From Gemmatimonadota bacterium (GTDB lineage: Bacteria; Gemmatimonadota; Gemmatimonadetes; Gemmatimonadales; GWC2-71-9), in assembly GCA_003221005.1 (NCBI GenBank), contig QHTZ01000076.1, forward strand, positions 1 to 36,343: a DNA stretch of 36,343 bases, read 5' to 3'. Positions within the stretch are counted from its first letter, which is position 1. Every line of letters begins with the position of its first letter. Below, in pieces: positions 1-19,859 of this stretch. The notes beneath the pieces were generated by a model, which ran no database searches, had not been told where the DNA came from, and saw only the letters and a program-made list of their open reading frames with translations. Made by a program: the position numbers and the translations under genes.

Positions 1-418
1 AAGCGCGCTGCGCCGCTTCGTACCAAGACCGCGCTTGGAGCGGCCGTCCCACGTGCTGTTCCGCGTGGCCGGCACGCAGCAAAGCCGCCACCACTTCGCC
101 CCCGTCGCCACGTTGCTGCGCTTCGAGGGCCTGCACGTACGCCCGATAGAGGACCTGGAGGTGCTCGGTGACCTGGTGGAACGCCTGCGGCATGCGGCGC
201 GTCAGCTCTTCAGGCTGCACGCCGCGCTTGCCGATGGTGAGATACGGGCCGGAGCTGGACCACAGCGCGCGCTCATCGGGGCGGGAGATGGAGACGAGGA
301 GCGCGCGCAAAGGTGCAACCACCTCGAGATCGGGGAGCAGCTCCAGCGCCTTGTCGACGCGCACCGGGACCGGAGCGGGCGAGGGGGAGGGCGAGGGGGA
401 GGAGCGGCCCGGGCTCAC
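1..418 (-). CDS. Truncated hypothetical protein (runs off window start), helical, possibly TPR-like
   Basis: Not in the ORF track. Its GTG at 418 overlaps the TGA of the upstream EBP gene (GTGA). The frame is open to the window edge: VSPGRSSPSPSPSPAPVPVRVDKALELLPDLEVVAPLRALL...VVAALLRAGHAEQHVGRPLQARSWYEAAQRA. Confidence 0.7.
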   Translation of the reverse strand, partial: MSPGRSSPSPSPSPAPVPVRVDKALELLPDLEVVAPLRALLVSISRPDERALWSSSGPYLTIGKRGVQPEELTRRMPQAFHQVTEHLQVLYRAYVQALEAQQRGDGGEVVAALLRAGHAEQHVGRPLQARSWYEAAQRA

Positions 419-1809
419 AACCCGTACTCCTTCATTTTCCGCGTCAGCGTGTTGCGGTGGATGCCGAGGATCTCCGCCGCGGCGCCGATCTGCCCGTTGG
501 TGTGCGCGAGTACACGCGCGATGTGGCGCGCTTCGAGCTCGGCCAGCGTGAGCAGGGCGCCCTGAGGCCGCTCGCCGAGCGTCGCCTCCTCGCCCCGGAA
601 TTCGTCGGGCAGGTGCTCCGCCCGCAGTACGTCGCCCGTCGCAACGATGACGGCCCGCTCGAGCACGTTGCGGAGCTCGCGCACGTTCCCCACCCAGGCG
701 TGGTTGCGGAGCAGGTCCAGCGCCCGGTCCGACATCGCCTGAATGCGCTTGCCGTAGCGCTCGGCGAACTGGCGGACGAAGTAGGCTGTGAGGAGCACCA
801 GATCGTCGCCCCGCTCGGCGAGGGTCGGAAGCCGGATGGTCACCACCGCGAGCCGGTAGTAGAGGTCCTCGCGGAACCGCCCTTGGGCGATCGCCTCCTT
901 GAGGTCGCGGTTCGTCGCGGCGATCAGGCGCACGTCCACGGGGATCGGCTCCCCGCCGCCGACCCGTTCGATCTCGCGCTCCTGGACGGCGCGGAGGATC
1001 TTGGCCTGGAGCGCGAGACTCATGTCCGCCACTTCGTCCAGGAACAGCGTGCCGCCGACAGCGTGCTCGAACCGTCCGATCTTGCGCGTGACGGCGCCGG
1101 TGAACGCCCCCTTTTCATGGCCGAACAGCTCGCTCTCCAGCAGGTTCTCCGGGATCGCGGCGCAGTTTACCGCGACGAACGGCGCCGTCGAGTGGGGGCC
1201 ATCCAGATGGATCGCGCGGGCGACGACCTCCTTCCCGGTGCCCGACTCACCCTGAATCAGCACCGTGGCGGCGCTCGGCCCCACGCGGGCCATGAGCTTG
1301 TAGACCTCCAGCATCGTGGGACTCTGACCCACGAGGGCGTATTGACCGACGGCGTGGTGCTCGACCGAGGGCAGCGGGACCGGGACCTCGACGGCGGCGG
1401 AGCGCACGCGCGCCAGGGCGCCGAGGAAGTCGTCCTTGCGGAGGGGCAGGGTCAGGAGGTCCAGCACGCCGAGGCTCTCGGCGCGCAACACCAGGCCCAT
1501 CGACGGATTGTCGGTCGCCGCGATCAGCCGGGGCGCGCCGCTCGCCCCGTGCAGCGCATCCACCCACCAGGCAAGATCGTCGTCTGCCCGCTCGCTCAAG
1601 ACGGCCACCACCAGGTCCCAGCGTTCGGCCGCGAGCTTGCGCACGGCCCGGGGTAGATCGGGCGCGCCCTCGACCTGGAGCGCCGCGTCCTCGGCCCACT
1701 GGCGCAGGCTCTGGACGACGCCTTCGTTCTCCTCACCGGCGACGACGAGAATCCGCACCCGCGACGAGTCCCCCTTCCGCGACGGAGCGGGGGGCGGGGA
1801 CGATTCCAT
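415..1809 (-). CDS. Sigma54-dependent enhancer-binding protein (pseudo-REC + AAA+ + Fis HTH)
   Basis: Walker A GESGTGKE, GAFTGA, LFLDEV, GRFREDLYYRL, WVGNVREL and C-terminal AAEILGIHRNTL. The N-terminal REC-like domain lacks the key Asp and Lys. Start is ATG 1809 or GTG 1815. Confidence 0.95.
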   Translation of the reverse strand: MESSPPPAPSRKGDSSRVRILVVAGEENEGVVQSLRQWAEDAALQVEGAPDLPRAVRKLAAERWDLVVAVLSERADDDLAWWVDALHGASGAPRLIAATDNPSMGLVLRAESLGVLDLLTLPLRKDDFLGALARVRSAAVEVPVPLPSVEHHAVGQYALVGQSPTMLEVYKLMARVGPSAATVLIQGESGTGKEVVARAIHLDGPHSTAPFVAVNCAAIPENLLESELFGHEKGAFTGAVTRKIGRFEHAVGGTLFLDEVADMSLALQAKILRAVQEREIERVGGGEPIPVDVRLIAATNRDLKEAIAQGRFREDLYYRLAVVTIRLPTLAERGDDLVLLTAYFVRQFAERYGKRIQAMSDRALDLLRNHAWVGNVRELRNVLERAVIVATGDVLRAEHLPDEFRGEEATLGERPQGALLTLAELEARHIARVLAHTNGQIGAAAEILGIHRNTLTRKMKEYGL

Positions 1810-1823
1810 TGACACCGGCGGTC

Positions 1824-2438
1824 TCAGGCGCCGCCTCCCGCGTCGCCCAGATACCGCGCTACCAGCACGAGCGCATCATCCGTACCCTTCGCATAGCGTG
1901 CGAGGATCTGGTCGGCGAGCTGCTGCGGCGTCGCATCGGACGCGATGCTCTCGGCGAACCCGCTCCTGATCCCGTCGGAGGCGAAGATGAGCGTATCGCC
2001 CGGCGTGAGACGGACGTGGTGCGCGTTGAGCGGGGGCAGCTCGGAGCCCACGATGCCGCCCGGCGTGACCAAGGCGGTCCGCCTAGGTCGCTCCGCGCGA
2101 TCGCCGTGGAGCAGCACACCCTCCACGTTGCCGACCCCGAGCCACGTCAGGGAGCGGTGCGCAAAACTGAGGAACGCGAGGCTCATCACTACCCCGCGCG
2201 TGCCGATCAACGCCTGGTGACACGCCTTCACCAGCGGCACCAGGGATTCGTCCGCCTGGCGGTCGAGCACGGCCACCGCAGCCCGGGCGGCGGTCGCGGC
2301 CTCGGCGCCGTGGCCGAGGCCGTCCACCACACCCAGAAGCACGCCTGTCGCCACGGGCTTTACCAAAGAGAGGTCACCCGACTCGCCAGCCAGCGCCGAC
2401 GTGGCGACGCCCCAGTCGATCACGGCGGTCGTGGTCAT
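1824..2438 (-). CDS. rsbX: RsbX-like PP2C/SpoIIE serine phosphatase
   Basis: SGD, VVDGLGHG, FASDG and TDD motifs; directly follows rsbT. Confidence 0.85.
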   Translation of the reverse strand: MTTTAVIDWGVATSALAGESGDLSLVKPVATGVLLGVVDGLGHGAEAATAARAAVAVLDRQADESLVPLVKACHQALIGTRGVVMSLAFLSFAHRSLTWLGVGNVEGVLLHGDRAERPRRTALVTPGGIVGSELPPLNAHHVRLTPGDTLIFASDGIRSGFAESIASDATPQQLADQILARYAKGTDDALVLVARYLGDAGGGA

Positions 2439-2445
2439 AGGCCCC

Positions 2446-2868
2446 TCAACCGAGCCGGCGCCATTTCTTCATGGTGACGGTCGTGCCCTGGCCCACCGCC
2501 GACGTGAGCTCGAACTCGTCCATGAGTCGCTTGGCGCCGGGGAGCCCGAGCCCGAGCCCGCCCGAAGTGGAATAGCCGTCCTGCAGCGCGCGCGCGATGT
2601 CGCGGATCCCGGGACCCTGATCGCGCGCGATCACGACCACGCCCTGCCGGTCGCCGTTCGCGACGACGCTGAGGACGATCTCTCCCCGCTTAGCGTACAT
2701 CAGGATATTGCGAGCGATCTCTGAGATGGCGGCAGCGATGACGGTCTGATCGCCGCTCGTGAACCCGGCGTTGGCCGCCACCTCCCGGCCCTGCTGGCGG
2801 GCCTGGACGACGTCCACGTCCGCCGCGATTGGGAGGCGCAACTCGTCAGCCACGGTCGATGCGTCCAC
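2446..2868 (-). CDS. rsbT: RsbT switch serine/threonine kinase
   Basis: ISEIARNILMYA, DQGPGI, GYST, GLGLGLPGAKRLMDEF and GTTVTMKKW; overlaps the end of rsbS. Confidence 0.93.
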   Translation of the reverse strand: MDASTVADELRLPIAADVDVVQARQQGREVAANAGFTSGDQTVIAAAISEIARNILMYAKRGEIVLSVVANGDRQGVVVIARDQGPGIRDIARALQDGYSTSGGLGLGLPGAKRLMDEFELTSAVGQGTTVTMKKWRRLG

Positions 2869-3247
2869 CTGGCGGACGGCGGTCCTCGAGCCGCCCCTCC
2901 CCCTGCTGATTGAGGAACGCCAATCCTTCTTCCAGGTCGAGCGCGGTCGCGACGCCCTTGAGCGTCAGACCGAGCTGGACCATGGCGAAAGCGACCTCTG
3001 GCTGGATGCCGACGATCACGGTGTCGGCGCCGCGCAGCCGCGCCATGTGAGCGATGTCGCGGAGCGTGCGGACGGCGAAGGAGTCCATCACGTCGAGCGC
3101 CGTGACGTCCACGATCACGCCCCTGGCGCGGAACCGCCCGACCCGCTCGATCAACGCCTCCCGCAGCTGCGAGAGATCGGCGTCCGTCAGCGCCGACTGA
3201 ATGGACGCGATCAGGTAGTGCCCCTGCTTCAGAATCGGAACTTCCAC
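2846..3247 (-). CDS. rsbS: RsbS stressosome antagonist (STAS)
   Basis: VPILK, VIVDVTALDVMDSF (Ser equivalent to B. subtilis S59), VGIQPEVA and TALDLEEG. Confidence 0.93.
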   Translation of the reverse strand: MEVPILKQGHYLIASIQSALTDADLSQLREALIERVGRFRARGVIVDVTALDVMDSFAVRTLRDIAHMARLRGADTVIVGIQPEVAFAMVQLGLTLKGVATALDLEEGLAFLNQQGEGRLEDRRPPGGRIDRG

Positions 3248-3276
3248 CGCGCCCTCCGCTTCCGGAGTGGGGTCAG

Positions 3277-4185
3277 CTACGGTTTGGGAGCCAGGTCTTC
3301 GAGCGGCAGCACCTTGTACCCGAGCAGCCGCTCCGCCTCCTCGATGCCGCCTTGCAGGTCGCCGACCGTCGCCATCTCACTCAGGTCGACGCCGATGGTC
3401 ACCAGCGTCTGCGCAATCTCGGGCGAGAGGCCCGTGACGATGACGGTGGCGCCAAGCAGCCGCGACGCCTCCACGGTTTGGACCAGGTGGTTCGCCACGT
3501 TCGAGTCCATCGCGGCCACGCCGGTGATGTCGATCACGACCACCTTGGCGCGGTTGGTCCGGATGGCGCGCAACAGCTGTTCAGTCAGCTGACGCGCGCG
3601 CTGCGGGTCGATGACGCCGATGATCGGGAGAATGAGCAGGCGCTCGCGCACCTGGAGTACCGGCGTCGACAGCTCGCGGATCGCCTCCTGCTGCTGGCGG
3701 ATGATGCGCTCGCGCTCCTGCACGAAGCCGACCGCCACGGTGTTGGCGACACGGTTGGCCGCCGGCTCGTAGGCGTCGAGAATCCGGTTGAGCTTGTCGA
3801 AGTCTTCGTGGTACTTGCCGAACAGCGAGCGGGCCAGCACGTCGCGCAACAACAGCACGATGCCCACCACTTCATGGGTCTCGACGCCCCGCGGGATGAT
3901 GCGCTCCGAAAGGTTCCGCGCGTACGCCTGCAGGGCCTCGAATGTCCCCGTCTCGAGCGCCTCGACGTAGTTGTCGTAGACTGAGGTTGCTTCGGCGAAG
4001 ATTTCCTCTTCCGTCATCGCGGTGAGGAGTTGTGCGCGGGTGATACGGCGCGCCCACTCCTCACGCAGCTGAGTGCGGTTCTGGCGCAGGTGGGCGACCA
4101 GTTCGCGCAGCAGCGCTGCGGTGGACTCCGTATGAGCCAGCGGATCCTGTGGCAGCGGCGGCGCTTCTTTGGCTTTGGTGGCCAT
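3277..4185 (-). CDS. rsbR: RsbR stressosome co-antagonist (helical N-terminal sensor + STAS)
   Basis: QQQEAIRELSTPV linker, ILPIIGVID, VIDITGV and TGLSPEIAQTLV; first gene of the rsbRSTX operon. Confidence 0.93.
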   Translation of the reverse strand: MATKAKEAPPLPQDPLAHTESTAALLRELVAHLRQNRTQLREEWARRITRAQLLTAMTEEEIFAEATSVYDNYVEALETGTFEALQAYARNLSERIIPRGVETHEVVGIVLLLRDVLARSLFGKYHEDFDKLNRILDAYEPAANRVANTVAVGFVQERERIIRQQQEAIRELSTPVLQVRERLLILPIIGVIDPQRARQLTEQLLRAIRTNRAKVVVIDITGVAAMDSNVANHLVQTVEASRLLGATVIVTGLSPEIAQTLVTIGVDLSEMATVGDLQGGIEEAERLLGYKVLPLEDLAPKP

Positions 4186-4228
4186 GGCTGGCGGTCCTCG
4201 CCTGGTCGAATGTTGCTAGCACGCAACA

Positions 4229-4243
4229 GCAAGGCTAGTGCCA
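4229..4243 (-). promoter_or_regulatory. Sigma54 -24/-12 promoter for rsbRSTX-EBP
   Basis: Minus strand TGGCAC-TAGCC-TTGC, an exact consensus match 44 nt upstream of the rsbR ATG. Confidence 0.85.
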
Positions 4244-4268
4244 CTTGGCGACCCCCATCCCAGCGGGC

Positions 4269-4294
4269 GTAAGCAACTTATTCACAAGATGTTA
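4269..4294. promoter_or_regulatory. AT-rich IHF-like box
   Basis: GTAAGCAACTTATTCACAAGATGTTA lies 25 nt upstream of the -24 box and matches 19054-19079 at 18/26 positions. Confidence 0.5.
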
Positions 4295-4365
4295 TGGTTA
4301 AGAGCGGAACTGTCCGGAAGCCACCGTGCAGCGGATTGTGGCAGCAGCAGAGTTTGCGGGGCACC

Positions 4366-4487
4366 AAAAAAGGGCGCGGGGAGTTCGGGCACCATCGGAG
4401 TTCCGTCGGTGTGGCGCTGGAGCAGCGACGGAACGCAATCCACGAATGGTCAGCTCAAAGTCAGCCCGTACTCCCCGGCTATGCCCT
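4366..4487 (-). ncRNA. Structured RNA element, copy 1 (ends in U6 tract)
   Basis: Nested stems AGGGC/GCCCU, CGGGGAGU/ACUCCCCG, CGGGC/GCCCG, ACCAU/AUGGU and GUUCCGUCG/CGACGGAAC, followed by a U tract; near-identical to 6942-7054. Confidence 0.65.
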
Positions 4488-4506
4488 GCTGCTCTCCACT
4501 AAGGCC

Positions 4507-5178
4507 TCATAGGCTCGCGGCGCTCTGCGCCGTACCTACCACGATGTCGCCCGTGGGAGTGCCAAGGGGGCCGATGAGGTACACGTGAATCATGTTCACG
4601 GTCAGGCCGGTGCTGTGCACGCCGTCGCCGGTCGGAATCTGCTCGTTCAGCACCACATATCCCACGCCCGGCAGATTCACTTGGGTGTTCGGCGTGGGCG
4701 CTTCGTCGCCGTAGCTCGCGCCGTTGACCACCAGTCCCACGAGCGTCGAGCCGTCCGATTCGCTGGTCGCCCCGACGCCGTTCGCGTAGCTCGTCGCCAC
4801 CGCCAGCACTGCCCGGGCCGTGATCAATCCGTTCAGCACGCTCACGTTGGCGGCTTCGGCGGTCGTCGTTGCGGAAACGAGCGTCTGGTCGAGCTGGCCC
4901 GTCGTGATGGACGCAAGGCCATCCGCGGAGAGCGTGCTCGGCACCGCGACGGTGGCCAGCTCGGAGTCCGCCATTCCCCCGGAGCTCGGCAACGCGGCGA
5001 TCGCGAATTGCTGTGCGCCGCTCGTCGTGGTCACAGCCGCGGCGGCCCCCTGCCCCGATACGCTGCCGGACTGCCCCTCGGAGCGGACGGGCGCCAACGC
5101 GAAACCACTCACGACGACGAGCACGCTTAGCGTCGAGAGCCATCGCGCCACTGCGACTGGGATCGTTGTTCCGGTCAT
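4507..5178 (-). CDS. Secreted choice-of-anchor P-like protein, no anchor, copy 1
   Basis: Sec signal peptide, then LNGLITA and PNTQVNLPGVGYVVLNEQ...GLTVNMIHV. Paralog of 7108-7797. Family name is from recalled motif similarity. Confidence 0.75.
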   Translation of the reverse strand: MTGTTIPVAVARWLSTLSVLVVVSGFALAPVRSEGQSGSVSGQGAAAAVTTTSGAQQFAIAALPSSGGMADSELATVAVPSTLSADGLASITTGQLDQTLVSATTTAEAANVSVLNGLITARAVLAVATSYANGVGATSESDGSTLVGLVVNGASYGDEAPTPNTQVNLPGVGYVVLNEQIPTGDGVHSTGLTVNMIHVYLIGPLGTPTGDIVVGTAQSAASL

Positions 5179-5188
5179 AGGCTATCGC

Positions 5189-6712
5189 TCACTTGCTCTT
5201 GTGGAGCTGAATGTTGCCTCCACTGAGGTACCCGGACGCGTGGTAGTCGGCGATCGTGACGTCGATGTAATCCCTGCCGCGACCGGGCTCTCCGTTGTCG
5301 CACGCCGCATTCATCGTAAATGAGTACGTGCCGCTCGCCGAGGGTACGTCTTTGTCCTTGAGCATGCCGGTGCCGGACCAGGTCCGGCAGCTGGGCTGGC
5401 CTGAGACGAGGCTGTAGCTGCCCGGGGTGATCGTGCCCTTGAACGTGAAGTCGCCATACGCGCACGTCGCAGACCCCGAGTCCACGCCGTCCAGGCAATG
5501 CTGCACCCACTCAAACTTGCCTCCCGTCGGCTTAGCCTCGAAGCCGAAGGTTGCGAAATCGCGTTTGTCACCGAGCTTCCCGCCACCCGTCATCTTGCCG
5601 CTGGCCGCGACCGCGACGCAGCTCACCGCAAACGACGCCGTGGCCGTGCCACCTGAGGGCACCGTGACCGACTGCGGGTTGGGGTCGCTCACCGTGCAGT
5701 TCGCCGCCACGTCCGAGAGCATGACGCTATGGCTGCCCGCCGCGAGCGCGGAGAAGGTGACACTGCCGTTCGTCGCGATCGTCTGACTCTGGCTCTCGTC
5801 CACCGTGACGGTGTAGCCGTCGGCATCGAGATTCGAGCCGGTCGTGGTCGTCGTCACTGTCAGGTCGCCGGTCGCGGGCCCCGCCGGGTTGAGCGAGAAC
5901 ACGCTGGCAAGCCAGGTGCTCGGCGTGGTGAAGATCCAGTTCCACCGCGGCTCGACCGTGCCCGCGGTGGCCTGCGTAGCCGTGTCCGCCTCGTCGACGA
6001 GAAACGCATCGGACTGCTCGACGAAGACCCCAAAGCCCGGGGGCGGATCGCGACCGACCACGCTGTTCGAACTGGTGATGGCAAAGGCGAGCGCGCCGGC
6101 CTCGACCGCAACCGGGCCGGGATCGGCGACGGTGGGATACGAGGAGCCGGTGCCCGAGGCCGAGCGGTGCTCGCCGAGTGCCCCCGCCAGTGTCGGGTCG
6201 ACGCCGGTCCACGCTGAGATCATCACCCCGCCATCCTCCACCGGCAGCGCGAGGTTCGCCTGCACCGCCAGCACGTGCGCATCATCCGTGTTCGGGTCGG
6301 GAAAGCCCTGCACGTTGGTGGCGACGTACGTCGCCATCGAGATGAGGCCGTCCGACACAAACTCGACCAGCGTGTACGTGTTGCCGACGGGCGTCTGCTC
6401 CGCGTTGGTCAGTCGGTCCGTCACCGAGGTGATGATGTTCGTGTGCATCAGCGTGGGATCGATCCACAAGAAGGTCGCCACGATGGCGTCCCCCACGTGC
6501 GGGTTCGTCGGGTTGAACCCCTTCACGAGCACGTCGCCCTGCTCGTTGAACGACCCGTTCACCTGATCGAGGACGATTCCGCTCCCCGTTGCGTCGAACG
6601 TCGGGGCCGCGAGGCCACGCCGCTCGGGACCGATAGACTCGGTACAGCCCACGGCGAAGAGCGCGGCCGCCACGAGCACCTGAACGCCACGGATCGTTGT
6701 TTCCCTGCGCAT
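5189..6712 (-). CDS. Multidomain lipoprotein (507 aa) with Ig-like repeat and C-terminal post-COAP-1-like domain
   Basis: ATG 6712 with GAGG RBS, lipobox AVG-C, TGDLTVTTTTTGSNLDADGYTVTVD repeat, and C-terminal GKMTGGG..ATFGF..DNGEPG..LSGGNIQLH. Confidence 0.8.
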   Translation of the reverse strand: MRRETTIRGVQVLVAAALFAVGCTESIGPERRGLAAPTFDATGSGIVLDQVNGSFNEQGDVLVKGFNPTNPHVGDAIVATFLWIDPTLMHTNIITSVTDRLTNAEQTPVGNTYTLVEFVSDGLISMATYVATNVQGFPDPNTDDAHVLAVQANLALPVEDGGVMISAWTGVDPTLAGALGEHRSASGTGSSYPTVADPGPVAVEAGALAFAITSSNSVVGRDPPPGFGVFVEQSDAFLVDEADTATQATAGTVEPRWNWIFTTPSTWLASVFSLNPAGPATGDLTVTTTTTGSNLDADGYTVTVDESQSQTIATNGSVTFSALAAGSHSVMLSDVAANCTVSDPNPQSVTVPSGGTATASFAVSCVAVAASGKMTGGGKLGDKRDFATFGFEAKPTGGKFEWVQHCLDGVDSGSATCAYGDFTFKGTITPGSYSLVSGQPSCRTWSGTGMLKDKDVPSASGTYSFTMNAACDNGEPGRGRDYIDVTIADYHASGYLSGGNIQLHKSK

Positions 6713-6758
6713 CAAATGCCACCTCTGTGTCGGGCGCGGACCCTCATCGTGCTGCAAC

Positions 6759-6773
6759 GCAATCACGGTGCCA
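6759..6773 (-). promoter_or_regulatory. Sigma54 -24/-12 promoter
   Basis: Minus strand (TT)TGGCAC-CGTGA-TTGC, an exact consensus match 47 nt upstream of ATG 6712. Confidence 0.85.
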
Positions 6774-6894
6774 AAACGCCACGCCCCACAGTGTGGCGGC
6801 GGTGCGGCGATCGAGCGGCGCCAATCTCGTGCCGGGCGAATGGTGACCTGTCGCGAGTCGATGCGCGCGCGCCTGCGGTGTGGCGTGCACGTCG

Positions 6895-6929
6895 AAAACG
6901 AAAACGACCCGGTATGAACTGGGTCGTTC
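6895..6929 (-). terminator. Intrinsic terminator after RNA copy 2
   Basis: Minus strand AACGACCC-loop-GGGUCGUU followed by UUCGUUUU. Confidence 0.65.
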
Positions 6930-6941
6930 GCGTCCTGCCAA

Positions 6942-7054
6942 GCAGTGCGGGGAGCCGGGCTTACCTTCGGGGTCCCGCCGGTGTGCGCTGGAGCAGCGGC
7001 GGAACGCAATCCACGAATGGTCAACTCAAGTCAGCCCGTACTCCCCGACTATGC
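6942..7054 (-). ncRNA. Structured RNA element, copy 2
   Basis: Same nested stems as copy 1, with a compensatory U-A to C-G change and a U-A to U-G wobble in GUUCCGCCG/CGGCGGGAC. Confidence 0.65.
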
Positions 7055-7107
7055 GACTATGTCTCGCCCTTCTGCTCTACTGCCAGACTCGTGCCACCCG
7101 GTGCGGC

Positions 7108-7797
7108 TCAAGGCCCCACAGAGCTCGACGCCGACCCGACGATGATCTCACCGGTCGTCGTCGCGCCACCCAACAGACCCCCAGCGCTCTGCAGGTAGAC
7201 GTGAATCATGTTCACCGTCATGCCACTGCTCGTCACACCGTCGCCCGAGGGAATCTGCTCGTTCAACACGACATAGCCGACTCCCGGGAGATCCATATTG
7301 GTGTTGGGAGCGACCACGTCATCGCCCCACGTGACCGGCACGCCCGCTACCACGAGGTTCTGGAACGTGGAGCCGTCGGCGTTGCTGGCGGCGCCACTCG
7401 CGGTGCTCCTGCTCATGACGTTGGCAATCACCTCGTCCGCCGTGATCAGCCCGTTCAGGATGTTGATGTGCGCGGCGCTCGCTGTGCTCTGTGCACCCGA
7501 TTCTGTAGTCCCGATTTCGCCCGACGTGATGCTATTGAGGAAATCGGACGACAGGGCGTCCGGTACACTGAGCGCACTGCCTTGGGCGTCCGCTTCGGCG
7601 CCGTCGGTCCCCGAGACGGCCGGCAAGACCGCGAGCGGCGCCTGACCACTGGAAGCGGCGGGCGTGTTCACATACGTGCTGTACGCCTGGCCGGCCACCG
7701 ATTGGGCAACGCTCGCCCCCATGAACCCAGCGGTCAGCCCGACGACGAGACCGAAGGCCGCGAGGCAGTTCACCCAATGCATTCTCATGCTGTTCAT
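7108..7797 (-). CDS. Secreted choice-of-anchor P-like protein, no anchor, copy 2
   Basis: GGAG RBS, signal peptide ending ASVA-Q, then LNGLITA and PNTNMDLPGVGYVVLNEQ...GMTVNMIHV. Confidence 0.78.
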   Translation of the reverse strand: MNSMRMHWVNCLAAFGLVVGLTAGFMGASVAQSVAGQAYSTYVNTPAASSGQAPLAVLPAVSGTDGAEADAQGSALSVPDALSSDFLNSITSGEIGTTESGAQSTASAAHINILNGLITADEVIANVMSRSTASGAASNADGSTFQNLVVAGVPVTWGDDVVAPNTNMDLPGVGYVVLNEQIPSGDGVTSSGMTVNMIHVYLQSAGGLLGGATTTGEIIVGSASSSVGP

Positions 7798-7851
7798 CAG
7801 TCACTCCTTCCTTGATCCGCAGTCCTAATGAGCCTGGATGTCATTGCCCGT

Positions 7852-8478
7852 TCACGACCCGTGATCGACGATGTTGCCGCCCGTCAAGTACGTGAGGTCC
7901 GTGTCCCCATATCCGGTGCTGATCCAGCGCATCGCATCGGTTCGGCTGTTCTGCGGCGCGCCACGATCGTTGTCGCACAGCTCCATCTGCACCTGGTCCG
8001 TGCCCTTGTTCCCGTCGACGCGCGCCGTGATGGGGTCCACACCGACCAGGAGACACGCGCCTCTGCCTGACGCGTCCGGGTCAATGAGCTCGGCGAACAC
8101 GGTCTCACCGTAGGCATCCTGCCCGTTGTGGATGGACACGTGCCAACTGGTGTGCGATGGGTGATGGTTGACTTCGATCTCGCCTTTGGTCACGATGCAT
8201 CGCCCGTCACCATCCGATCCGAGAAAGACATTGAACCCGAACGTGACCTTCCCTTCCAGCGTGCTCGTTCCAGTTGCGCCATCGTCGAAGTCTGGGTTGG
8301 GAGGGTCCATGCGGCCACCGCCGGTCCACTTCCCGGTGGGGCATTCTTCTACGCCGCCCCAAAAGCTCGGGCGGTGTGGTGCCATGTTGAGGTTCGTCTG
8401 ATCGCTGCAGGCCGCAGCTACCAGCGCGGCCGCGAGGAGACTCGGCCAGACGATGACGTTTCTCTGTTCTCGCATCAT
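7852..8478 (-). CDS. Lipoprotein with post-COAP-1-like domain
   Basis: Start ATG 8478 or 8475, lipobox AAA-C, and GKWTGGG..KVTFGF..LCDND..YLTGGNIVDH, homologous to the C-terminus of 5189-6712. Confidence 0.78.
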   Translation of the reverse strand: MMREQRNVIVWPSLLAAALVAAACSDQTNLNMAPHRPSFWGGVEECPTGKWTGGGRMDPPNPDFDDGATGTSTLEGKVTFGFNVFLGSDGDGRCIVTKGEIEVNHHPSHTSWHVSIHNGQDAYGETVFAELIDPDASGRGACLLVGVDPITARVDGNKGTDQVQMELCDNDRGAPQNSRTDAMRWISTGYGDTDLTYLTGGNIVDHGS

Positions 8479-8537
8479 GTGCGTTCTGCCCTCCTGCCCG
8501 GAGCGTTGGTGCGTTGACTTCCCGGGCACGCAGATGG

Positions 8538-8552
8538 GCAAACGCAGTGCCA
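8538..8552 (-). promoter_or_regulatory. Sigma54 -24/-12 promoter
   Basis: Minus strand TGGCAC-TGCGT-TTGC, an exact consensus match 60 nt upstream of ATG 8478. Confidence 0.85.
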
Positions 8553-8681
8553 CCACGGCGACCGCTGCAGCACGTTGGGATTACGAGAGATAGAAGGAAC
8601 GTCGCGGCGATGCAGCGATGCACGTGCAACGCGTTCGTGGCCACACGTGTCGTGCCCGCAGAACGCAGCCCCCATGCAACA

Positions 8682-8767
8682 CGAGCGGCCCGGCATCAGC
8701 CGGGCCGCTCGCTTCGTACCAGCACACGGCCGTCGCGGGGAGCGGCGTGCGGTCCGCTCCCCGCGGC
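8682..8767. repeat. Two GC-rich inverted repeats downstream of wecB
   Basis: CGAGCGGCCCGGC-ATCA-GCCGGGCCGCTCG (8682-8711) and CGCGGGGAGCGG-N8-CCGCTCCCCGCG (8734-8765); no U tract. Confidence 0.7.
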
Positions 8768-8780
8768 ACTGCCGCATCGA

Positions 8781-9962
8781 TCATGTACCCACCTCCTCGT
8801 GTGAATACGCTGGTGCTGCCGAAATCGCGACGGGGTAGCGCCGCAGCGCCACGTCGTTCATGGAAACGTCGTCGAGGCGCTCGTCATCGCACAGGACGCC
8901 GACGATCCGCTCCGCTGCACGGCCATCCCAGCGCTCGATCACGGGGCGCGCGGGCGAGCGGCGGGCGACCGCGCGCTCGGCGGCAGCGAGGATCGCGTCA
9001 GGTCGCGGCGGCACGAGCCGATTTGTGCCCGGGGCGCACGTGATCGGCCGCTCGGTGTTCGGTCGCACGGTGAGACAGGGAATGCCCAGGAACGTCGTCT
9101 CCTCCTGCAGCCCGCCCGAGTCGGTGATCACGAGCGCGGCCCCGACCACGAGGCCCAGCATCTCCAAGTAGCCGACCGGCTCCATGAGGCGCAGATCCCC
9201 GTCGCCCTCCGGGACCACGCCGAGGGCGCGGACGCGCTTCCGGGCACGGGGGTGCATCGGAAACAGCACGGGCCAGCGGCGGCCCAGGGACCGCAGCGCG
9301 TCGAGCAGCACGCGCAGCGTCGCCGGATCGTCCACGTTGGATGGCCGATGCAGCGTGACCACCACATACTCCCCTTCCCGCAGCTCGTGTCGTGCAGGGG
9401 CGTTGCGCTCGAGCGCCTCCGGCAGTGCCCAGCACAGCGAATCGATCATGACGTTGCCGACAAAGTGAACCCGCTCCGCGGGAATGCCCTCCGCTTGCAG
9501 GTTGGCTTCCGCGTCGCGCGATGGGATGAAGAGCAAATCCGACAGGCGGTCCGCCACGACCCGATTGATCTCCTCGGGCATACTCCAGTCGCCGCTGCGC
9601 AGTCCCGCTTCCACGTGGCCCACGCGGAGCCGGAGCTTCGCCGCCACCAGCGCCGCCGCGAGCGTGGAGTTCACGTCGCCGTACACCAGCACCGCGTCGG
9701 GCCGCAGCTGGACGAGCACCGGCTCCAGCCGCTCCATCACGGCCGCGGTCTGCGCCGCGTGCGAGCCGGAGCCGACGCCGAGATGGTGGTCGGGCGCCGG
9801 GATCCACAGCTCTTCGAAGAACGCGTCCGACATGTCGGGGTCGTAGTGCTGACCCGTGTGCACGATGACATGCTCCACGCCCGGACGCTTGACCAGCGCC
9901 CGGTCCACCGGTGCCAGCTTCATGAAGTTAGGCCGTGCACCCACGACAGAGACGATGCGCAT
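8781..9962 (-). CDS. wecB: UDP-N-acetylglucosamine 2-epimerase (non-hydrolysing)
   Basis: GARPNFMK, HTGQHYD, GDVNST, HVEAGLRS, PEEINR, TDSGGLQEE and TERP. Confidence 0.96.
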   Translation of the reverse strand: MRIVSVVGARPNFMKLAPVDRALVKRPGVEHVIVHTGQHYDPDMSDAFFEELWIPAPDHHLGVGSGSHAAQTAAVMERLEPVLVQLRPDAVLVYGDVNSTLAAALVAAKLRLRVGHVEAGLRSGDWSMPEEINRVVADRLSDLLFIPSRDAEANLQAEGIPAERVHFVGNVMIDSLCWALPEALERNAPARHELREGEYVVVTLHRPSNVDDPATLRVLLDALRSLGRRWPVLFPMHPRARKRVRALGVVPEGDGDLRLMEPVGYLEMLGLVVGAALVITDSGGLQEETTFLGIPCLTVRPNTERPITCAPGTNRLVPPRPDAILAAAERAVARRSPARPVIERWDGRAAERIVGVLCDDERLDDVSMNDVALRRYPVAISAAPAYSHEEVGT

Positions 9963-10606: not shown

Positions 10607-12429
<1,823 letters not shown>

Positions 12430-12432
12430 CGT

Positions 12433-12660
12433 TCACTCCCTCTCGTGCCGCCGGGGTTGCAGCAGCGGTTTACCGCCGGTCGCGAGGCCGAACTTCGCCA
12501 GCTGAGCCAGCGTGGCGTGGCCTTCGCTCACCCGCATTCCCCCGATCGTGAGGATCGTCGCGCCGCAGCGCTCGCAGGTCATCTCCCGCAATTGGCGTGC
12601 GCGGCGCGGTGGTTCCTTGTCGTCGCCGGCCGCCTTCCCTCCGCAACGGATGCAGAGCAT
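12433..12660 (-). CDS. Small putative zinc-binding protein (two CxxC)
   Basis: GGAGG RBS 6 nt before ATG 12660, CIRC and CERC motifs, stop 3 nt before the glmS ATG. Confidence 0.55.
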   Translation of the reverse strand: MLCIRCGGKAAGDDKEPPRRARQLREMTCERCGATILTIGGMRVSEGHATLAQLAKFGLATGGKPLLQPRRHERE

Positions 12661-12852
12661 CGGCATCCTCCAGCTACGTGGCTGTTCGAGGAGCGCGACA
12701 CTTCAAGTTTGAGGCCGACCAGCGCGCCGGCGCGCGCGCGCGCCGCCAAGCGCCTAGATCGGCAACGGCTTAGGCCCGTGCCCCGGGGCGCGCGCTGCGA
12801 CCGTCCCGTTGCGCACGCGCCGCAGCGGGGCCGCCCGCCAAGCGAAGGATTG

Positions 12853-12868
12853 CGGCCCCGGGCTTGCA
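12853..12868 (+). promoter_or_regulatory. Sigma54-like promoter
   Basis: CGGCCC-CGGGC-TTGCA (GG-N10-GC) upstream of ATG 12921. Confidence 0.5.
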
Positions 12869-12920
12869 GATACTCCGACTGCGGCAGCGCTGAGCCGCAC
12901 TGGAGGAAGGACCCGCGACG

Positions 12921-13883
12921 ATGACCGATCACATGCCACCAGACGGCTTACCGCTGGCACTGCTCGTCGAGGACCGGGAGGAGCGGATGCACTGGCTCGC
13001 GCACCTGTTCGAGACCAGCGGGTACGCGGTGCTGCGCGAGCGCACAGCCCGGCATGCACGGGAGCGCGCGCGGGCGGCGCAGCCTGACCTGATCCTGACG
13101 GCGGCGGACCTCCCCGACATGTCCGGGATCGAGCTATGCCGCGCGCTGTGCACGGACGCTCAGATCCCGAGCAGCACCCCAGTGTTCATCGCGCTCCCCG
13201 AAAGCGAGAGCCGCGAGCAGCGGCTTGCAGCGTTGCGCGCGGGCGCCTGGGAGTGCATCACGCCGCCGCATGACCCGGACGAAATTCTGCTCAAGGCCAA
13301 CGCCTACGTCCGCGCCAAACGCGCCGCTGACCGGATGCGGATCGAGGGATTGATCGACGCGCAAACGGGGCTCTACAACCGCCAGGGACTGGCGCGCCGC
13401 GCGCGCGAGCTCGCGTCCCAAGCGGTGCGGGACCACGGCGCGCTCACGTGCCTGGTGCTGGCCCTCGACCTCGAGATCGGCGGTCCCGCAGCCCTGGACG
13501 ACAGCGCGACCGGCGCGCTCACGCGCGGCGTGCACCTGTTGCAGGCGGCGGCCCGCCGCTCCGACGTCATCGGCCGCCTGGGCACGGCGGAATTCGCGGT
13601 GCTCGCGCCCGGAACGGATGCCATCGGCGCCCGCCGCCTGGCGGAGCGCCTCGCGGGCTCGCTCGAGGTCGGGACGACGGACGCTGTGGCCCTCGGGCTG
13701 CCTGGGGTGCGGGTGCGGTGCGGCTATGAGGCGGTCGCCAACATGGGCTACGCGCCGATCGAGCCGACCGAGCTGCTCCTGCGCGCGGCGGCCGCGCTGC
13801 GCACTGGGCAAGCCGAAGGCGGGGGATGGCTCCGCCGTTTTGAAGCCGCCGCCATCAATCCAACACCGCAAGCGGCATCCTAA
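12921..13883 (+). CDS. Degenerate REC-GGDEF protein (probable c-di-GMP effector)
   Basis: REC-like N-terminus, DAQTGLYNR, GGDEF replaced by GTAEF, and RxxD (RRSD) five residues upstream of it. Confidence 0.85.
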   Translation: MTDHMPPDGLPLALLVEDREERMHWLAHLFETSGYAVLRERTARHARERARAAQPDLILTAADLPDMSGIELCRALCTDAQIPSSTPVFIALPESESREQRLAALRAGAWECITPPHDPDEILLKANAYVRAKRAADRMRIEGLIDAQTGLYNRQGLARRARELASQAVRDHGALTCLVLALDLEIGGPAALDDSATGALTRGVHLLQAAARRSDVIGRLGTAEFAVLAPGTDAIGARRLAERLAGSLEVGTTDAVALGLPGVRVRCGYEAVANMGYAPIEPTELLLRAAAALRTGQAEGGGWLRRFEAAAINPTPQAAS

Positions 13884-16297
13884 GTGACGAGCGGCTGAGC
13901 CTGCGCCTCTTCGTCCACCGCCTCGTAACCAGGCAGATAGTAGGAGTAGTAACGATACGTCGCCCCAGCGGGGACGTCGTTCAGCACCGCGCCCAGCAGG
14001 CGGACCGGGAGGCGCTGCAGCACCTCGAGCTTCGCCGCCGTCATCTCGCGATCGCTCTGCCCGGTGCGCAGCACTAGCAGCAGGTTTCCAGTGAGCGTGC
14101 CCACGATGAGGGGGTCGACGCCTGCGGCGAGCGGCGGGTTGTCAAACAGGATCACGTCATAGTGGGTCCGCAGCCCGGCGACGAACTGCCCCATCGCCGG
14201 CGAGCCGAGCAGCTCGGGCGCATGGTGCGCGCGCGTGCCGCAGCTGACCAGCGCCAACGATGGATGGGTCGTCGATTGGACGATCGCCTCGAGCGGGGCC
14301 TCGCTGCGCAGGAAGTCGCACAAGCCGGGGCGGCGCGGCCGGCCCAGACGCCGGTGCAGCACACCGCGGCGAATGTCGGCATCCACGAGCAGGACGCGAT
14401 GTCCGCTCTCGGCAAACGTGTAGGCGAGGTTCGCCGCGATGAACGACTTCCCCTCGCCCGGACCAGGGCTCGTGACGGCCGCAATGAGCGGGCCCGCCGT
14501 GCCGTAGGCATGCTCCAGGTTCAAGCATACCCCGCGCAACGCCTCGAGCACTTCGGCCACGTTCTCGGACAGCGGCCCGGTACCCTGCCGCTGAGCCTCG
14601 GACTTCCGCAGGTGCGGCACCGCGCCGAGAATCGTCAGGCCCATGCCGCGCGACACCTGCTCGGGGTAGCGCACCCGGGGATCGACGCGATCGAGGAGCA
14701 CCGCTCCCGCGACCGCCAGGCCGAGGCTCGCGAACAGGGCGAACAAGACGATCCGCGGGGCCGTGTTCTTCACGGGCCGCTGTGGCGACACGGCCGAATC
14801 GAGGATGCGGACGTCGGGGATCGTGCTCGCCTCGGCAAGACGCGCCTCCTCGTACCGCTGCTGTAGCGTCGCGTACAAGTTCTCGGCGAGCGTCATGTCA
14901 CGCCGCAGGCGTGCTTCATCGATCGCCCGGGGAGGAATCTGACGCAGGTTCTGAGAGCCCGTCTCGACCCGCCGCCCGAGCTCCGCCTCCCGGGCCGCCA
15001 ACTCGCCCGCGAGCGCCTGCGCCAGCGCGGGGATGGTCTGCCGCTGCAGCGTCGCGATCTCCGCCGTGAGCCGTTGCACCCGTGGGTACGCGTCCGTGTA
15101 CTGGTATCTGAGGACGCGGAGGTCGGCCTGTTTCGTCACGAGCTCCTTCAGGGCTTGCGCCAGATCGGCGTTGTGCTGCACGGCCCCGATCGCTTCCAAC
15201 GCGGTGGCCGACAGGCCCGAGTCGCGCGCCTGCGCCAGCGCCTGGAGGATCGCCTTGCGATCCTGGTGCGCCTGCTGCTGCTCGATCTGCAGATCGAAGA
15301 AGCTCGTGAGGGCCGGGTCGCGGTCCGCGCCCGTGCCCGTCACGCCCGCCGCCGCCCGGCCGCTTGGAAGCGTGATGGTCCGTACGCCGAAACTCCGCAG
15401 CCCGGCCTCGGCGTCGCGCAGCCGCTGCCGCGCGGATTCTACCTGCTGGTCGAGGATCTTCGTCAGCTCGGTCACCTTCTCGCGCTTGAGCTCCGCCGCG
15501 ACCTCGACGTAGCGCTGGGCGATGGCGTTCACAATGGCCGTGATGCGAGCGGGTTGAGCGCCCCGCAGCTCGATGTGCAGGAAGCTTCCGTCCGGCGCCG
15601 CGCGCACATCCAACGCCTCGTCCAGGTGCCGCGCGCCGTCCCGCACCGTGGCCAGAGCGAAGCGGACGGTCCGCCCCGCTCCGAGCGCGTCCCGAGTGGG
15701 AACCCACAAGAACCCCAAGCGGGCGCCCACAGAGTCTCCCACCACCCCATGCTCGAGCGCGACCCCTTCCCCATCGGCCAGCGTGTAGTGCTGCCCCGTG
15801 GAGTCGACCGTCAGCCGGTACTTGCCGGGCCGGTACTGATCCGCGACCCCGAACGTCCCCAGCGCCACGCTGTCCGCGAGCGGGCGAACGGTCAGAAACA
15901 GGCGCTGCTCGCGCACCACCTGGTCGAGCACGATGTAGGACCGGAGCAAGTCCACCCAGGCCTCGGGCTCGAGCAGTTGACCCGAGCGAATAGGAGTCGG
16001 ACCGCGGTCCGGGCCGCGCCGATCCGCCTGGTCGATCCAGATGGTCGCCTGCACCAGGTATTGCGGTTTCAGGAACCGCGTCGCCGCGCCCCCGGCGGCG
16101 ACGCCGAGCAGGGTGACTGCGAGGATCAGCCACTTGAACCGCACGACGGCGCTCCACACGCGCCGCCAGTCGAGTGCGCCTTCGACCTCGGAGAACCCGG
16201 GCTCGACGAGGGAAAGGGCGGCCGGCTGCAGAGCCGCCCCCGCATCGGAGGATGGCGGGAGTCGGGCGAGTGCCGCGTGGTTGTCGCTGTTCGTCAT
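13880..16297 (-). CDS. wzc: Polysaccharide co-polymerase / BY-kinase (Wzc/GumC)
   Basis: Two TM segments, GPGEGKS, LLVDAD, ILFDNPP and the C-terminal Tyr cluster YRYYSYY. ATG 16297 has a GGAG RBS. Confidence 0.92.
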   Translation of the reverse strand: MTNSDNHAALARLPPSSDAGAALQPAALSLVEPGFSEVEGALDWRRVWSAVVRFKWLILAVTLLGVAAGGAATRFLKPQYLVQATIWIDQADRRGPDRGPTPIRSGQLLEPEAWVDLLRSYIVLDQVVREQRLFLTVRPLADSVALGTFGVADQYRPGKYRLTVDSTGQHYTLADGEGVALEHGVVGDSVGARLGFLWVPTRDALGAGRTVRFALATVRDGARHLDEALDVRAAPDGSFLHIELRGAQPARITAIVNAIAQRYVEVAAELKREKVTELTKILDQQVESARQRLRDAEAGLRSFGVRTITLPSGRAAAGVTGTGADRDPALTSFFDLQIEQQQAHQDRKAILQALAQARDSGLSATALEAIGAVQHNADLAQALKELVTKQADLRVLRYQYTDAYPRVQRLTAEIATLQRQTIPALAQALAGELAAREAELGRRVETGSQNLRQIPPRAIDEARLRRDMTLAENLYATLQQRYEEARLAEASTIPDVRILDSAVSPQRPVKNTAPRIVLFALFASLGLAVAGAVLLDRVDPRVRYPEQVSRGMGLTILGAVPHLRKSEAQRQGTGPLSENVAEVLEALRGVCLNLEHAYGTAGPLIAAVTSPGPGEGKSFIAANLAYTFAESGHRVLLVDADIRRGVLHRRLGRPRRPGLCDFLRSEAPLEAIVQSTTHPSLALVSCGTRAHHAPELLGSPAMGQFVAGLRTHYDVILFDNPPLAAGVDPLIVGTLTGNLLLVLRTGQSDREMTAAKLEVLQRLPVRLLGAVLNDVPAGATYRYYSYYLPGYEAVDEEAQAQPLVT

Positions 16298-16344
16298 TGG
16301 AACTCTGCTCCGCGTGACGGATGTGGTGCCGCCGCTGCGCAGCA

Positions 16345-16359
16345 GCAAGTCCGATACCG
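16345..16359 (-). promoter_or_regulatory. Sigma54-like promoter for wzc
   Basis: Minus strand CGGTAT-CGGAC-TTGC(T), 48 nt upstream of ATG 16297. Confidence 0.6.
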
Positions 16360-16490
16360 CGTCTCCACTTCCCTGTTGCGTGACCACGTGCCGCCCGTGA
16401 TGCCGCAAATCGGTGCACGGAGCGGGACGCGCCGATGCAGGTTGGTGCGGCAGGCCAGCGCGTCAGCCTTGCTGCGAGGTCGCGACAGCT

Positions 16491-16505
16491 TGGCCCGAAC
16501 TGTGC
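16491..16505 (+). promoter_or_regulatory. Sigma54-like promoter for the NtrC-type regulator
   Basis: (T)TGGCCC-GAACT-GTGC (GG-N10-GC). Confidence 0.5.
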
Positions 16506-16540
16506 GTAGCAGGGGGCCGAACCGTCTCGGGATGAGCCTT

Positions 16541-18145: not shown

Positions 18146-18164
18146 GCGAGGGGAGAGCCATCGC

Positions 18165-19053: not shown

Positions 19054-19119
19054 GTAACTCACTAACTACCAATATGTTAGCAAAGCTCGCCGCGGCTCTA
19101 CCGGTGCACGGAGCTTGCT
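19054..19119 (+). promoter_or_regulatory. IHF-like box plus variant sigma54 promoter
   Basis: GTAACTCACTAACTACCAATATGTTA (19054-19079), then GTGCAC-GGAGC-TTGCT (19104-19119) with TG in place of the conserved GG. Confidence 0.4.
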
Positions 19120-19132
19120 AATACCACGAGGC

Positions 19133-19852: not shown

Positions 19853-19859
19853 CGACGGG

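Follow-up and report, generated by a model that had tools for sequence, protein, structure and literature searches.

The 36,343-nt stretch of DNA analysed here (the window) comes from a Gemmatimonadales metagenome-assembled genome (MAG; 2.79 Mb, 141 contigs, 93.9% complete). On its minus strand it carries two adjacent cassettes, each encoding a lipoprotein and a secreted protein of the choice-of-anchor P (COAP) family. The interpretation that we favour, and consider rather probable, is a split-anchor envelope complex, in which COAP is tethered by a lipoprotein and the two are produced from two paralogous sigma-54-dependent operons, each ending in a structured RNA. Each operon would supply a Sec-exported lipoprotein and a Sec-exported COAP protein without an anchor of its own. 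The post-COAP-1 β-barrel of the lipoprotein would dock onto the curved β-sheet of the co-encoded COAP, and the lipoprotein would tether COAP to a membrane of the cell envelope. Other lineages encode these two domains as a single polypeptide, of which the lipoprotein and COAP of the window may be regarded as the split-anchor form.

Anatomy of the two cassettes

In the 5′ to 3′ order of the minus strand, the region contains a UDP-GlcNAc 2-epimerase gene (8781–9962), promoter P1, lipoprotein 1, COAP1, a sigma-54-like site, the first copy of the structured RNA (RNA-1), a hairpin, promoter P2, lipoprotein 2, COAP2, the second RNA copy (RNA-2), promoter P3 and a regulatory operon. A sequence-only reading of this DNA had described a four-part unit occurring twice, and all four parts are found twice, both sets on the minus strand. 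The unit borders which it gave are about right, except that the RNAs actually end at 6935 and 4364.

Lipoprotein 1 (208 aa, 7852..8478) consists of a signal peptide, a lipobox cysteine and a post-COAP-1-type β-barrel domain of a divergent branch. Lipoprotein 2 (507 aa, 5189..6712) also begins with a signal peptide and lipobox, followed by about 350 aa for which no family match was obtained (no Pfam match and no usable Atlas match) and by a C-terminal post-COAP-1 domain. The lipoboxes read ...AAAC, followed by SDQ, and ...AVGC, followed by TES, and the cysteine is conserved in the majority of the family rows displayed, suggesting that both proteins are bacterial lipoproteins. A pattern search for the lipobox fired in 42 of 62 partner open reading frames (ORFs) from other genomes; this search is crude, and some of its matches fall on other motifs. 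Both lipoproteins end in the domain with the TGGG, TFGF, CDN and GGNI motifs that the sequence-only reading had singled out, and BLAST finds no significant similarity between them past the signal peptide. In lipoprotein 2, residues 374–505 match NF041523 (post_COAP_1) at 43.7 bits (cut-off 40). Lipoprotein 1 has 156 relatives, with the family motifs K-x-TGGGR-x-DP, KVTFGFN, CDN and TGGN-x-x-H, and 12 of 44 relatives match NF041523 (best E 5.3e-13). We treat it as a putative divergent branch of the post-COAP-1 domain superfamily.

COAP1 (229 aa, 7108..7797) and COAP2 (223 aa, 4507..5178, its start codon 10 nt past the stop codon of lipoprotein 2) each consist of a signal peptide and a choice-of-anchor P domain. 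The hidden Markov model (HMM) NF040603 (choice_anch_P) matches them at 146.4 and 140.8 bits, respectively (cut-off 27), over profile positions 2–184 of 185, so that both family names given in the sequence-only reading were right; the motif series PNT / LPGVGYVVLNEQ / TVNMIHV which it had pointed out is present in both proteins. By its name, a choice-of-anchor protein should carry a sorting or anchor signal C-terminal to the domain. COAP1 and COAP2 carry none: both end two residues past the domain, and no sorting-signal model matched in the HMM scan. A local copy of Pfam gave no match for any of the four cassette proteins; among relatives in the Atlas, PF26784 (DUF8256) is found on 11% of one cluster. 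The family is large, with 1552 close metagenome proteins at E ≤ 1e-5 and 820 representative clusters at E ≤ 0.001, and occurs in single-domain (~220 aa), tandem (~430 aa) and long multi-domain forms.

Pairing, fusion and lineages

The pair of genes is conserved well beyond the window. Species-representative genomes were scanned for COAP, and the 80 best of the 97 stretches confirmed were analysed as loci. Seventy-one of these are labelled Gemmatimonadetes, Gemmatimonadales or Gemmatimonadota; the others comprise four from Acidobacteriota and further ones from Binatia, Burkholderiales, Frankia, an unclassified Bacillati bin and an uncultured bin. Among 41 genomes of relatives, COAP is present in three, the window's own included. 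Pairing was counted for the 71 COAP genes that have at least 750 nt of upstream DNA in the 80 loci. In 56 of the 71, the lipoprotein HMM has a same-strand match whose end is under 250 nt upstream. Eight upstream ORFs of the other 15 were scanned against NCBIfam, and seven match NF041523, five of them above the cut-off. Thus, by HMM, 63 of 71 COAP genes have a post-COAP-1-type partner directly upstream, which bears out the conserved pairing that the sequence-only reading had proposed to look for. Two further upstream partners, in L087 (partly masked) and L057, were recognised from their motifs by eye only.

The two domains also occur in one polypeptide, as that reading had said. In three of the 20 longer homologues scanned (P0263, P0295, P0288), COAP is followed by post-COAP-1 in a single chain, and two more fusions (P0324 and P0368) were recognised by eye. 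The name post-COAP-1 itself implies this order within one polypeptide, COAP first. In the window the architecture is split as described, with the post-COAP-1 domain on a separate gene upstream of the COAP gene and carrying the lipid anchor.

Metagenome contigs of related organisms show a recurring synteny of epimerase, sigma-54 promoter, lipoprotein, COAP, RNA, sigma-54 promoter, RsbR and STAS genes. In genome G020 (locus L003), the orthologue of unit 1 is the only cassette at the syntenic position, and a plain terminator, without the RNA element, comes after it. This genome is unpublished; it also contributes one L003 row to alignments A2, A3 and A5, which feed the NF041523 and hhalign results for the lipoprotein relatives and the pairing survey, and nothing else reported here depends on it. 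Tandem lipoprotein-COAP cassettes are found in two other Gemmatimonadetes MAGs (L039 and L065). In L065, a pair with a lipoprotein of ~540 aa precedes the pair with a short lipoprotein, the opposite of the order in the window.

The identity between COAP1 and COAP2 is 45%. A quick maximum-likelihood tree, built from 77 COAP domains, places COAP2 in an 11-row clade (SH-aLRT 100), in which nine partners are long (~500 aa) and two unknown, and COAP1 in a separate 16-row clade (support 99), in which the partners are mostly lipoproteins of ~210–240 aa. The label 'long' was derived from stop-to-stop length and is noisy outside the COAP2 clade; partial genes, i.e. COAP matches starting past HMM position 20 or ending before 210, were left out of the tree. 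The two units are two old paralogous lineages. Each has kept to one type of partner lipoprotein, short in one and long in the other, which is what cognate pairs would be expected to show. A recent tandem duplication is ruled out by the COAP identity, the dissimilar lipoproteins and the separate clades.

Predicted structures and complex

Structure prediction supports, without showing it, binding of COAP1 by lipoprotein 1. For COAP1 (residues 33–229) with lipoprotein 1 (residues 44–208), the predicted complex has an ipSAE interface score of 0.89 (0.87–0.90 in three runs) versus 0.00 for the best of three controls. Of 80 solved complexes, 58 attain this mark, as do two of 110 mismatched pairs; as own alignments were used, these figures are rough only. 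Across runs at least 92% of contacts agree, the partner has a pLDDT of at least 86, and there are 113–136 contacts. On lipoprotein 1 the predicted interface is made of the invariant motifs (residues 50–56, 77–83, 99–113 and 199–207), and on COAP1 it comprises residues 64–70, 85–109 and 122–144, in the more variable half of the protein. The complex between lipoprotein and subunit that the sequence-only reading had envisaged is therefore predicted for unit 1. The prediction is unlikely to be a memory of a known complex because no solved fold resembles either protein.

The AlphaFold2 model of lipoprotein 1 (pLDDT 84.2) has a disordered tether (residues 24–43) followed by a nine-strand β-domain. 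Foldseek finds no match to it in the PDB at E ≤ 0.001. With VIA-align, the best match is a de novo designed 8-stranded barrel (Z 8.9, root-mean-square deviation (rmsd) 3.5, 118 residues aligned), followed by barrels of the OmpA/NspA type (Z 7.6) and the C-terminal barrel of HpuA (Z 5.5). For both models the VIA-align values are at or below the stated noise level of the tool (usually 7–8). We read the lipoprotein domain as a probable 8-stranded up-and-down barrel, the VIA-align matches being generic and not a sign of kinship.

COAP1 is modelled with higher confidence (pLDDT 92.2) as an all-β protein of 12 strands of up to 17 residues, and Foldseek against the PDB again gives no match at E ≤ 0.001. 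Its long antiparallel strands and its VIA-align list, which is headed by walls of outer-membrane barrels (LptD, TamA and FapF and, at the top, BtuB with Z 5.4 and rmsd 3.6 over 96 aligned residues), could be taken to mean that COAP is itself an integral outer-membrane β-barrel or half-barrel plugged by the lipoprotein barrel, as in LptD-LptE. The large predicted interface would suit such a plug, and tandem-COAP homologues of ~420–450 aa (P0265, P0268, P0272, P0289), unlike the single-domain forms, have aromatic or hydrophobic ends (...RTF, ...FRF, ...RSY, ...KPL). All the Z values are, however, below the usual noise, and the Foldseek TM-scores are 0.1–0.3. Aromatic residues make up 2.7–3.6% of the COAPs of the window and at most 4.1% across the 47-row alignment, and there is no C-terminal aromatic residue; this composition argues against a membrane barrel. 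We regard this alternative as very unlikely.

Sigma-54 promoters and a likely regulatory operon

The sequence-only reading had placed an exact TGGCAC-N5-TTGC promoter ahead of each unit. Both are confirmed on the minus strand, P1 at 8538..8552, 60 nt 5′ of the start codon of lipoprotein 1, and P2 at 6759..6773, 47 nt 5′ of that of lipoprotein 2. A third exact copy, P3 (4229..4243), belongs to the downstream regulatory operon. Three exact sites in the window (GC content 63–72%) compare with 0.05 expected, and none of 100 shuffles reached three. The whole 2.79-Mb genome has nine such sites, versus one for a reversed-pattern control, so that a third of them lie within 4.3 kb, each 47–60 nt 5′ of a start codon. 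The sites have the -24 GG / -12 GC consensus and its spacing, and the genome encodes both rpoN (422 bits, cut-off 277) and, downstream of the cassettes, a sigma-54 enhancer-binding protein (bEBP). A scan for sigma-70 promoters and terminators revealed no sigma-70-like promoter in 4200–8800.

The same promoter type accompanies the pair in other genomes. Within 350 nt 5′ of the lipoprotein gene, 20 of 62 pairs have an exact sigma-54 site and 32 of 62 a site with at most one mismatch; these sites typically end 50–85 nt ahead of the start codon. At the background density (0.042 exact sites per kb per strand), about one would be expected in the regions of the 62 pairs. The P3 15-mer recurs, identical and at the same place, in nine metagenome contigs from related organisms. 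A further site with one mismatch (TGGCAC-N5-TGGC, 7082..7096, minus strand) lies between the COAP1 stop codon and RNA-1 and is possibly the RNA's own promoter.

The likely regulatory operon (415..4185, minus strand) was annotated with Pfam and NCBIfam. It encodes an RsbR-like STAS protein (3277–4185), a second STAS protein (2846–3247), a PP2C/SpoIIE phosphatase (1824–2438) and the bEBP (415–1815). Its position and shared promoter type suggest that it is linked to the cassettes, which are probably switched on by the bEBP of this adjacent RsbR/RsbS/PP2C module, next to the exopolysaccharide (EPS) locus. Together with its promoter (415–4243), the operon resembles a stressosome-like partner-switching module wired to a bEBP, and the bEBP may activate its own promoter P3.

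A structured RNA behind the cassettes

The fourth part of the unit, a conserved RNA, is present twice, is predicted to fold and has covarying pairs. RNA-1 (6935..7055) and RNA-2 (4364..4485), both on the minus strand, match the covariance model at 141 and 117 bits, respectively. Over 109 nt they share 88% identity, which rises to 96% in blocks of 45 and 27 nt, and they are far more alike than the flanking coding DNA. Both fold better than their shuffles (z-scores -2.8 and -2.6). Rfam 15 gave no match at gathering scores across the window and none at E ≤ 10 for 4300–4520. The exact 23-mer of the core was found in ten metagenome contigs; two are near-identical to the window, and the rest represent three further variants, each located just 3′ of a COAP gene.

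The RNAalifold prediction comprises 31 pairs, arranged in three helices. In the first alignment, 97.1% of cells pair and four pairs are changed on both sides. The covariance model then matched sequences that had not been chosen by the 23-mer (L036, L074, L075, G005). In an alignment of 16 sequences, with 13 distinct rows among them, the share of paired cells is 95.9%, versus at most 60% in slid controls, ten of the 31 pairs are changed on both sides, and none of 500 shuffles reaches the covariation score. As the alignment was fitted to the model and its sequences are related, these figures lean towards structure. Helix 2 and the sequence of the internal loop are nearly invariant, and the compensatory changes lie in helices 1 and 3. 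With its good covariation, its links to sigma-54 and no Rfam counterpart, the motif is a candidate new RNA family. A small ORF is ruled out by indels of 1–4 nt between the copies inside the conserved core, and a mobile element by the presence of only three copies in the genome and the syntenic position across genera.

Beyond the window, the RNA is sparsely distributed. The covariance model finds it in nine of 151 genomes of the family, the window's own included. A BLAST-level search of 301 genomes of the order gave mostly chance matches of 20–25 nt, of which only that in G005 proved real. The RNA follows COAP in the window, in G332 and in G377. It stands by itself in G066, G272 and G347, with the epimerase gene on one side and the RsbR operon on the other, and neither the COAP nor the lipoprotein HMM finds a match in the 1.5 kb to its left and right; in G272 and G347 a one-mismatch sigma-54 site ends 37 nt ahead of it. 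Counterparts of the one-mismatch site ahead of RNA-1 precede the RNA in L119, L121 and L122; in some copies a sigma-54-like site lies 26–52 nt upstream. In G005 (L007/L118, same genus), where the search turned up no COAP gene, the RNA is flanked by genes for a secreted MsrB and for a class I/II aminotransferase, and a one-mismatch site precedes it by ~100 nt. A third copy in the window's own genome (G000, C101:3484-3600, plus strand; L127) is divergent (40 bits, E 8.9e-6) and located beside a convergent phosphoesterase-family gene. Other divergent copies, without a U tract, are found directly 5′ of proline dehydrogenase genes in G009, G340 and G272 C16 (L123, L124, L126); such a leader-like context would suit a cis-regulatory element or riboswitch. 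The RNA is thus a separable element, located most often upstream of the RsbR/bEBP operon.

In the predicted minimum-free-energy fold, the closing stem of RNA-2 abuts a U6 tract. A U tract adjoins the closing stem in most copies, with the exception of RNA-1 and the proline dehydrogenase copies; a simple terminator scan does not report the RNA-2 stem. Behind RNA-1, a terminator-like hairpin with a T-rich tail (6895..6925) was recognised by eye and is missed by a simple scan with a loop limit of 8 nt. As judged from the layout, the RNA of unit 2 could only be the 3′ end of its operon, and that of unit 1 has a putative sigma-54 site of its own. Closing stem and U tract probably form the transcript 3′ end, and the RNA may also be set free, or transcribed on its own, as a small RNA (sRNA).

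Alternatively, the conserved 3′ element could act mainly as DNA, either as the upstream activating region for the bEBP at the next sigma-54 promoter or merely as an elaborate intrinsic terminator. The distance from the core to the next sigma-54 promoter is nearly constant, at 205–209 nt in unit 2 and nine metagenome contigs and ~200 nt in five further genomes, and in most copies the closing stem leads into the U tract. However, the compensatory changes described above argue for selection on RNA pairing. Moreover, no sigma-54 promoter follows the copies in G005, on C101 or in the three proline dehydrogenase leaders, the last of which also lack the U tract, and the unpaired core is conserved in matches that were not selected by the core. 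A role mainly as DNA is therefore unlikely in our view.

Points against a tethered complex and the possibility of an enzyme

Several observations weigh against COAP tethering by a co-encoded lipoprotein, or narrow what can be claimed for it. The predicted complex is a model of one pair, COAP1 with lipoprotein 1. Lipoprotein 1 itself is below threshold for NF041523, with no match at E ≤ 0.1, and the profile of its relatives, to which hhalign assigns a probability of 93.7 against the end of lipoprotein 2, aligns over the last 45 columns only. Six of the 71 COAP genes have no nearby partner: those of L073 and L111 and two each in L113 and L115, where COAPs are in tandem. The RNA is not the fixed cassette part that the sequence-only reading took it for, as there are four strong matches in 84 COAP loci and most COAP loci lack it. 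Our literature searches returned no published experiments on any COAP or post-COAP-1 member. Finally, RNA-library contigs match unit 1 from 6997 to 8494 at 99–100% identity, which counts in favour of the operons, but such contigs cannot give strand, ends or expression level, and the libraries may contain DNA. Up to 43% of the sampled words of 4300–8600 occur in four soil metatranscriptome runs of one study, and one 151-nt metatranscriptome record spans RNA-1 (6921–7071). Unit 2 is covered in patches and 8508–8668, 4000–4160 and 4322–4482 are uncovered, gaps that prove nothing. Contig breaks at 7054–7057 were not taken for RNA ends: they coincide with the repeat common to both RNA copies and were treated as assembly breaks.

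Two further points concern function. The most conserved COAP motif (residues 164–200) lies outside the predicted interface, so that what COAP itself does need not be structural and could instead be catalysis or ligand binding. Furthermore, in two Acidobacteria MAGs post-COAP-1 forms the C-terminus of a MauG/MbnH-like di-haem enzyme encoded directly 5′ of COAP (L081:1562-3892 and L082:1583-3886; 69.6 and 53.5 bits). Here post-COAP-1 is joined to an enzyme instead of a lipid anchor, and it would thus be a docking module generally and not specifically an anchor. Found as a partner gene, in COAP fusions and on a di-haem enzyme beside COAP, post-COAP-1 appears to behave as a portable module travelling with COAP. 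The di-haem fusions also hint that COAP is modified by, or recruits, a redox enzyme.

These two points favour a periplasmic enzyme or ligand-binding complex, in which COAP would be the substrate- or cofactor-binding subunit and post-COAP-1 would recruit lipoproteins or redox enzymes. Invariant His and Cys are found in the lipoprotein barrel, and both proteins carry Sec signals only, with no evident route across the outer membrane. On the other hand, neither lipoproteins nor COAPs match a catalytic family in the NCBIfam and Pfam scans, and the COAPs are rich in Gly, Ala, Ser and Thr (48–50%), with few charged residues. In the Atlas structure neighbours, which are leads only, the COAP fold is combined with modules of the envelope and the cell surface (PEP-CTERM, VWA, Big, cell-wall hydrolase), and one neighbour has the PEP-CTERM anchor in 80% of its cluster. 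An enzymatic or ligand-binding complex is thus possible, if doubtful, and we retain the lipoprotein-tethered COAP as the preferred interpretation.

Exopolysaccharide neighbourhood

Upstream of the epimerase gene lies an EPS locus with genes for Poly_export/SLBB, GlmS, a Wzc-like tyrosine kinase, GT2 glycosyltransferases, Wzx and Wzy. Within it, positions 12921–18971 code for a response regulator that has a GGDEF domain, the Wzc-like kinase, a histidine kinase and a second sigma-54 response regulator. TIGR02915 ranks with the top matches of two sigma-54 activators, this second regulator among them, at scores (362 and 365 bits) that stay short of the 502.6 cut-off. Three long ORFs of the locus (24982–26046, 26021–27448 and 19118–20104, minus strand) match neither Pfam nor NCBIfam. 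ORF 10849–12924 on the plus strand, which has no match in a Pfam scan, overlaps the GlmS gene on the opposite strand and is probably not a gene. Given their position, the cassettes may be co-expressed with the EPS genes, and a fibre or matrix role would be compatible with this neighbourhood and with the Atlas leads.

Relation to known systems

The closest counterparts are single-chain proteins such as P0263, P0295 and P0288, which have the same two domains (NF040603 and NF041523). By contrast, the cassettes of the window use two genes in the reversed order, with post-COAP-1 first and the lipid anchor on the post-COAP-1 part, and lipoprotein 1 is a divergent form below the cut-off. In the way they may work, post-COAP-1 and COAP recall the docking modules cohesin and dockerin: post-COAP-1 is found on varied carriers (a short lipoprotein, a long lipoprotein, a di-haem enzyme), each beside a COAP, to which it is predicted to bind. 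The analogy is one of function, as there is no relation in sequence or fold, binding is only predicted and no multi-site scaffold is evident.

PEP-CTERM/exosortase cargo occurs with sigma-54 regulators of the PrsR type by EPS loci. Here, too, an EPS locus adjoins the cassettes, TIGR02915 gives sub-cut-off matches and a PEP-CTERM protein is among the Atlas neighbours (a lead only). Yet the COAPs of the window lack a PEP-CTERM tail, no exosortase was recognised among the ORFs scanned, and anchoring would be via the lipoprotein partner.

Sigma-54-dependent sRNAs can be encoded beside their activator, as in the case of the Vibrio Qrr RNAs next to luxO, and sRNAs derived from 3′ untranslated regions (UTRs) share the terminator of the mRNA. 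The RNA described here is likewise located just 5′ of a sigma-54 activator operon, some copies having a sigma-54-like site close upstream and some ending a sigma-54-driven operon with a U tract. It differs in having no sequence or Rfam relation to these sRNAs and no known target or chaperone; moreover, the proline dehydrogenase 5′ leaders suit a cis-acting element better.

Implications

In full-text literature searches we found no paper naming choice-of-anchor P, post-COAP-1, NF040603, NF041523, DUF8256 or PF26784, and family P is not mentioned in the titles and abstracts that were seen among choice-of-anchor papers. The families are thus named but uncharacterised; new are the conserved division of anchor and COAP between two genes, with the anchor on a lipoprotein, the predicted interface, control by sigma-54 and the RNA motif. 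As a tentative generalisation, COAP would be the receptor and post-COAP-1 the plug-in module of a widespread, hitherto unrecognised envelope docking system for lipid anchors, long accessory domains and redox enzymes. On the same tentative footing, the RNA would be a new class within the sigma-54 regulon, with a ligand- or protein-binding aptamer core, serving beside the stressosome/bEBP operon as a terminator-linked sRNA and ahead of proline dehydrogenase genes as a cis-acting leader. Such a split between sRNA-like and leader-like contexts is unusual.

The conserved pair, the reciprocal fusions and the predicted interface formed by invariant motifs give a first testable statement on these families, namely that post-COAP-1 binds COAP. 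Gemmatimonadales are abundant in soil and mostly uncultured, and unit 1 matches contigs from soil RNA libraries, in which DNA carry-over is possible. In these bacteria, the pairing could explain how COAP proteins without an anchor of their own are retained in the cell envelope.

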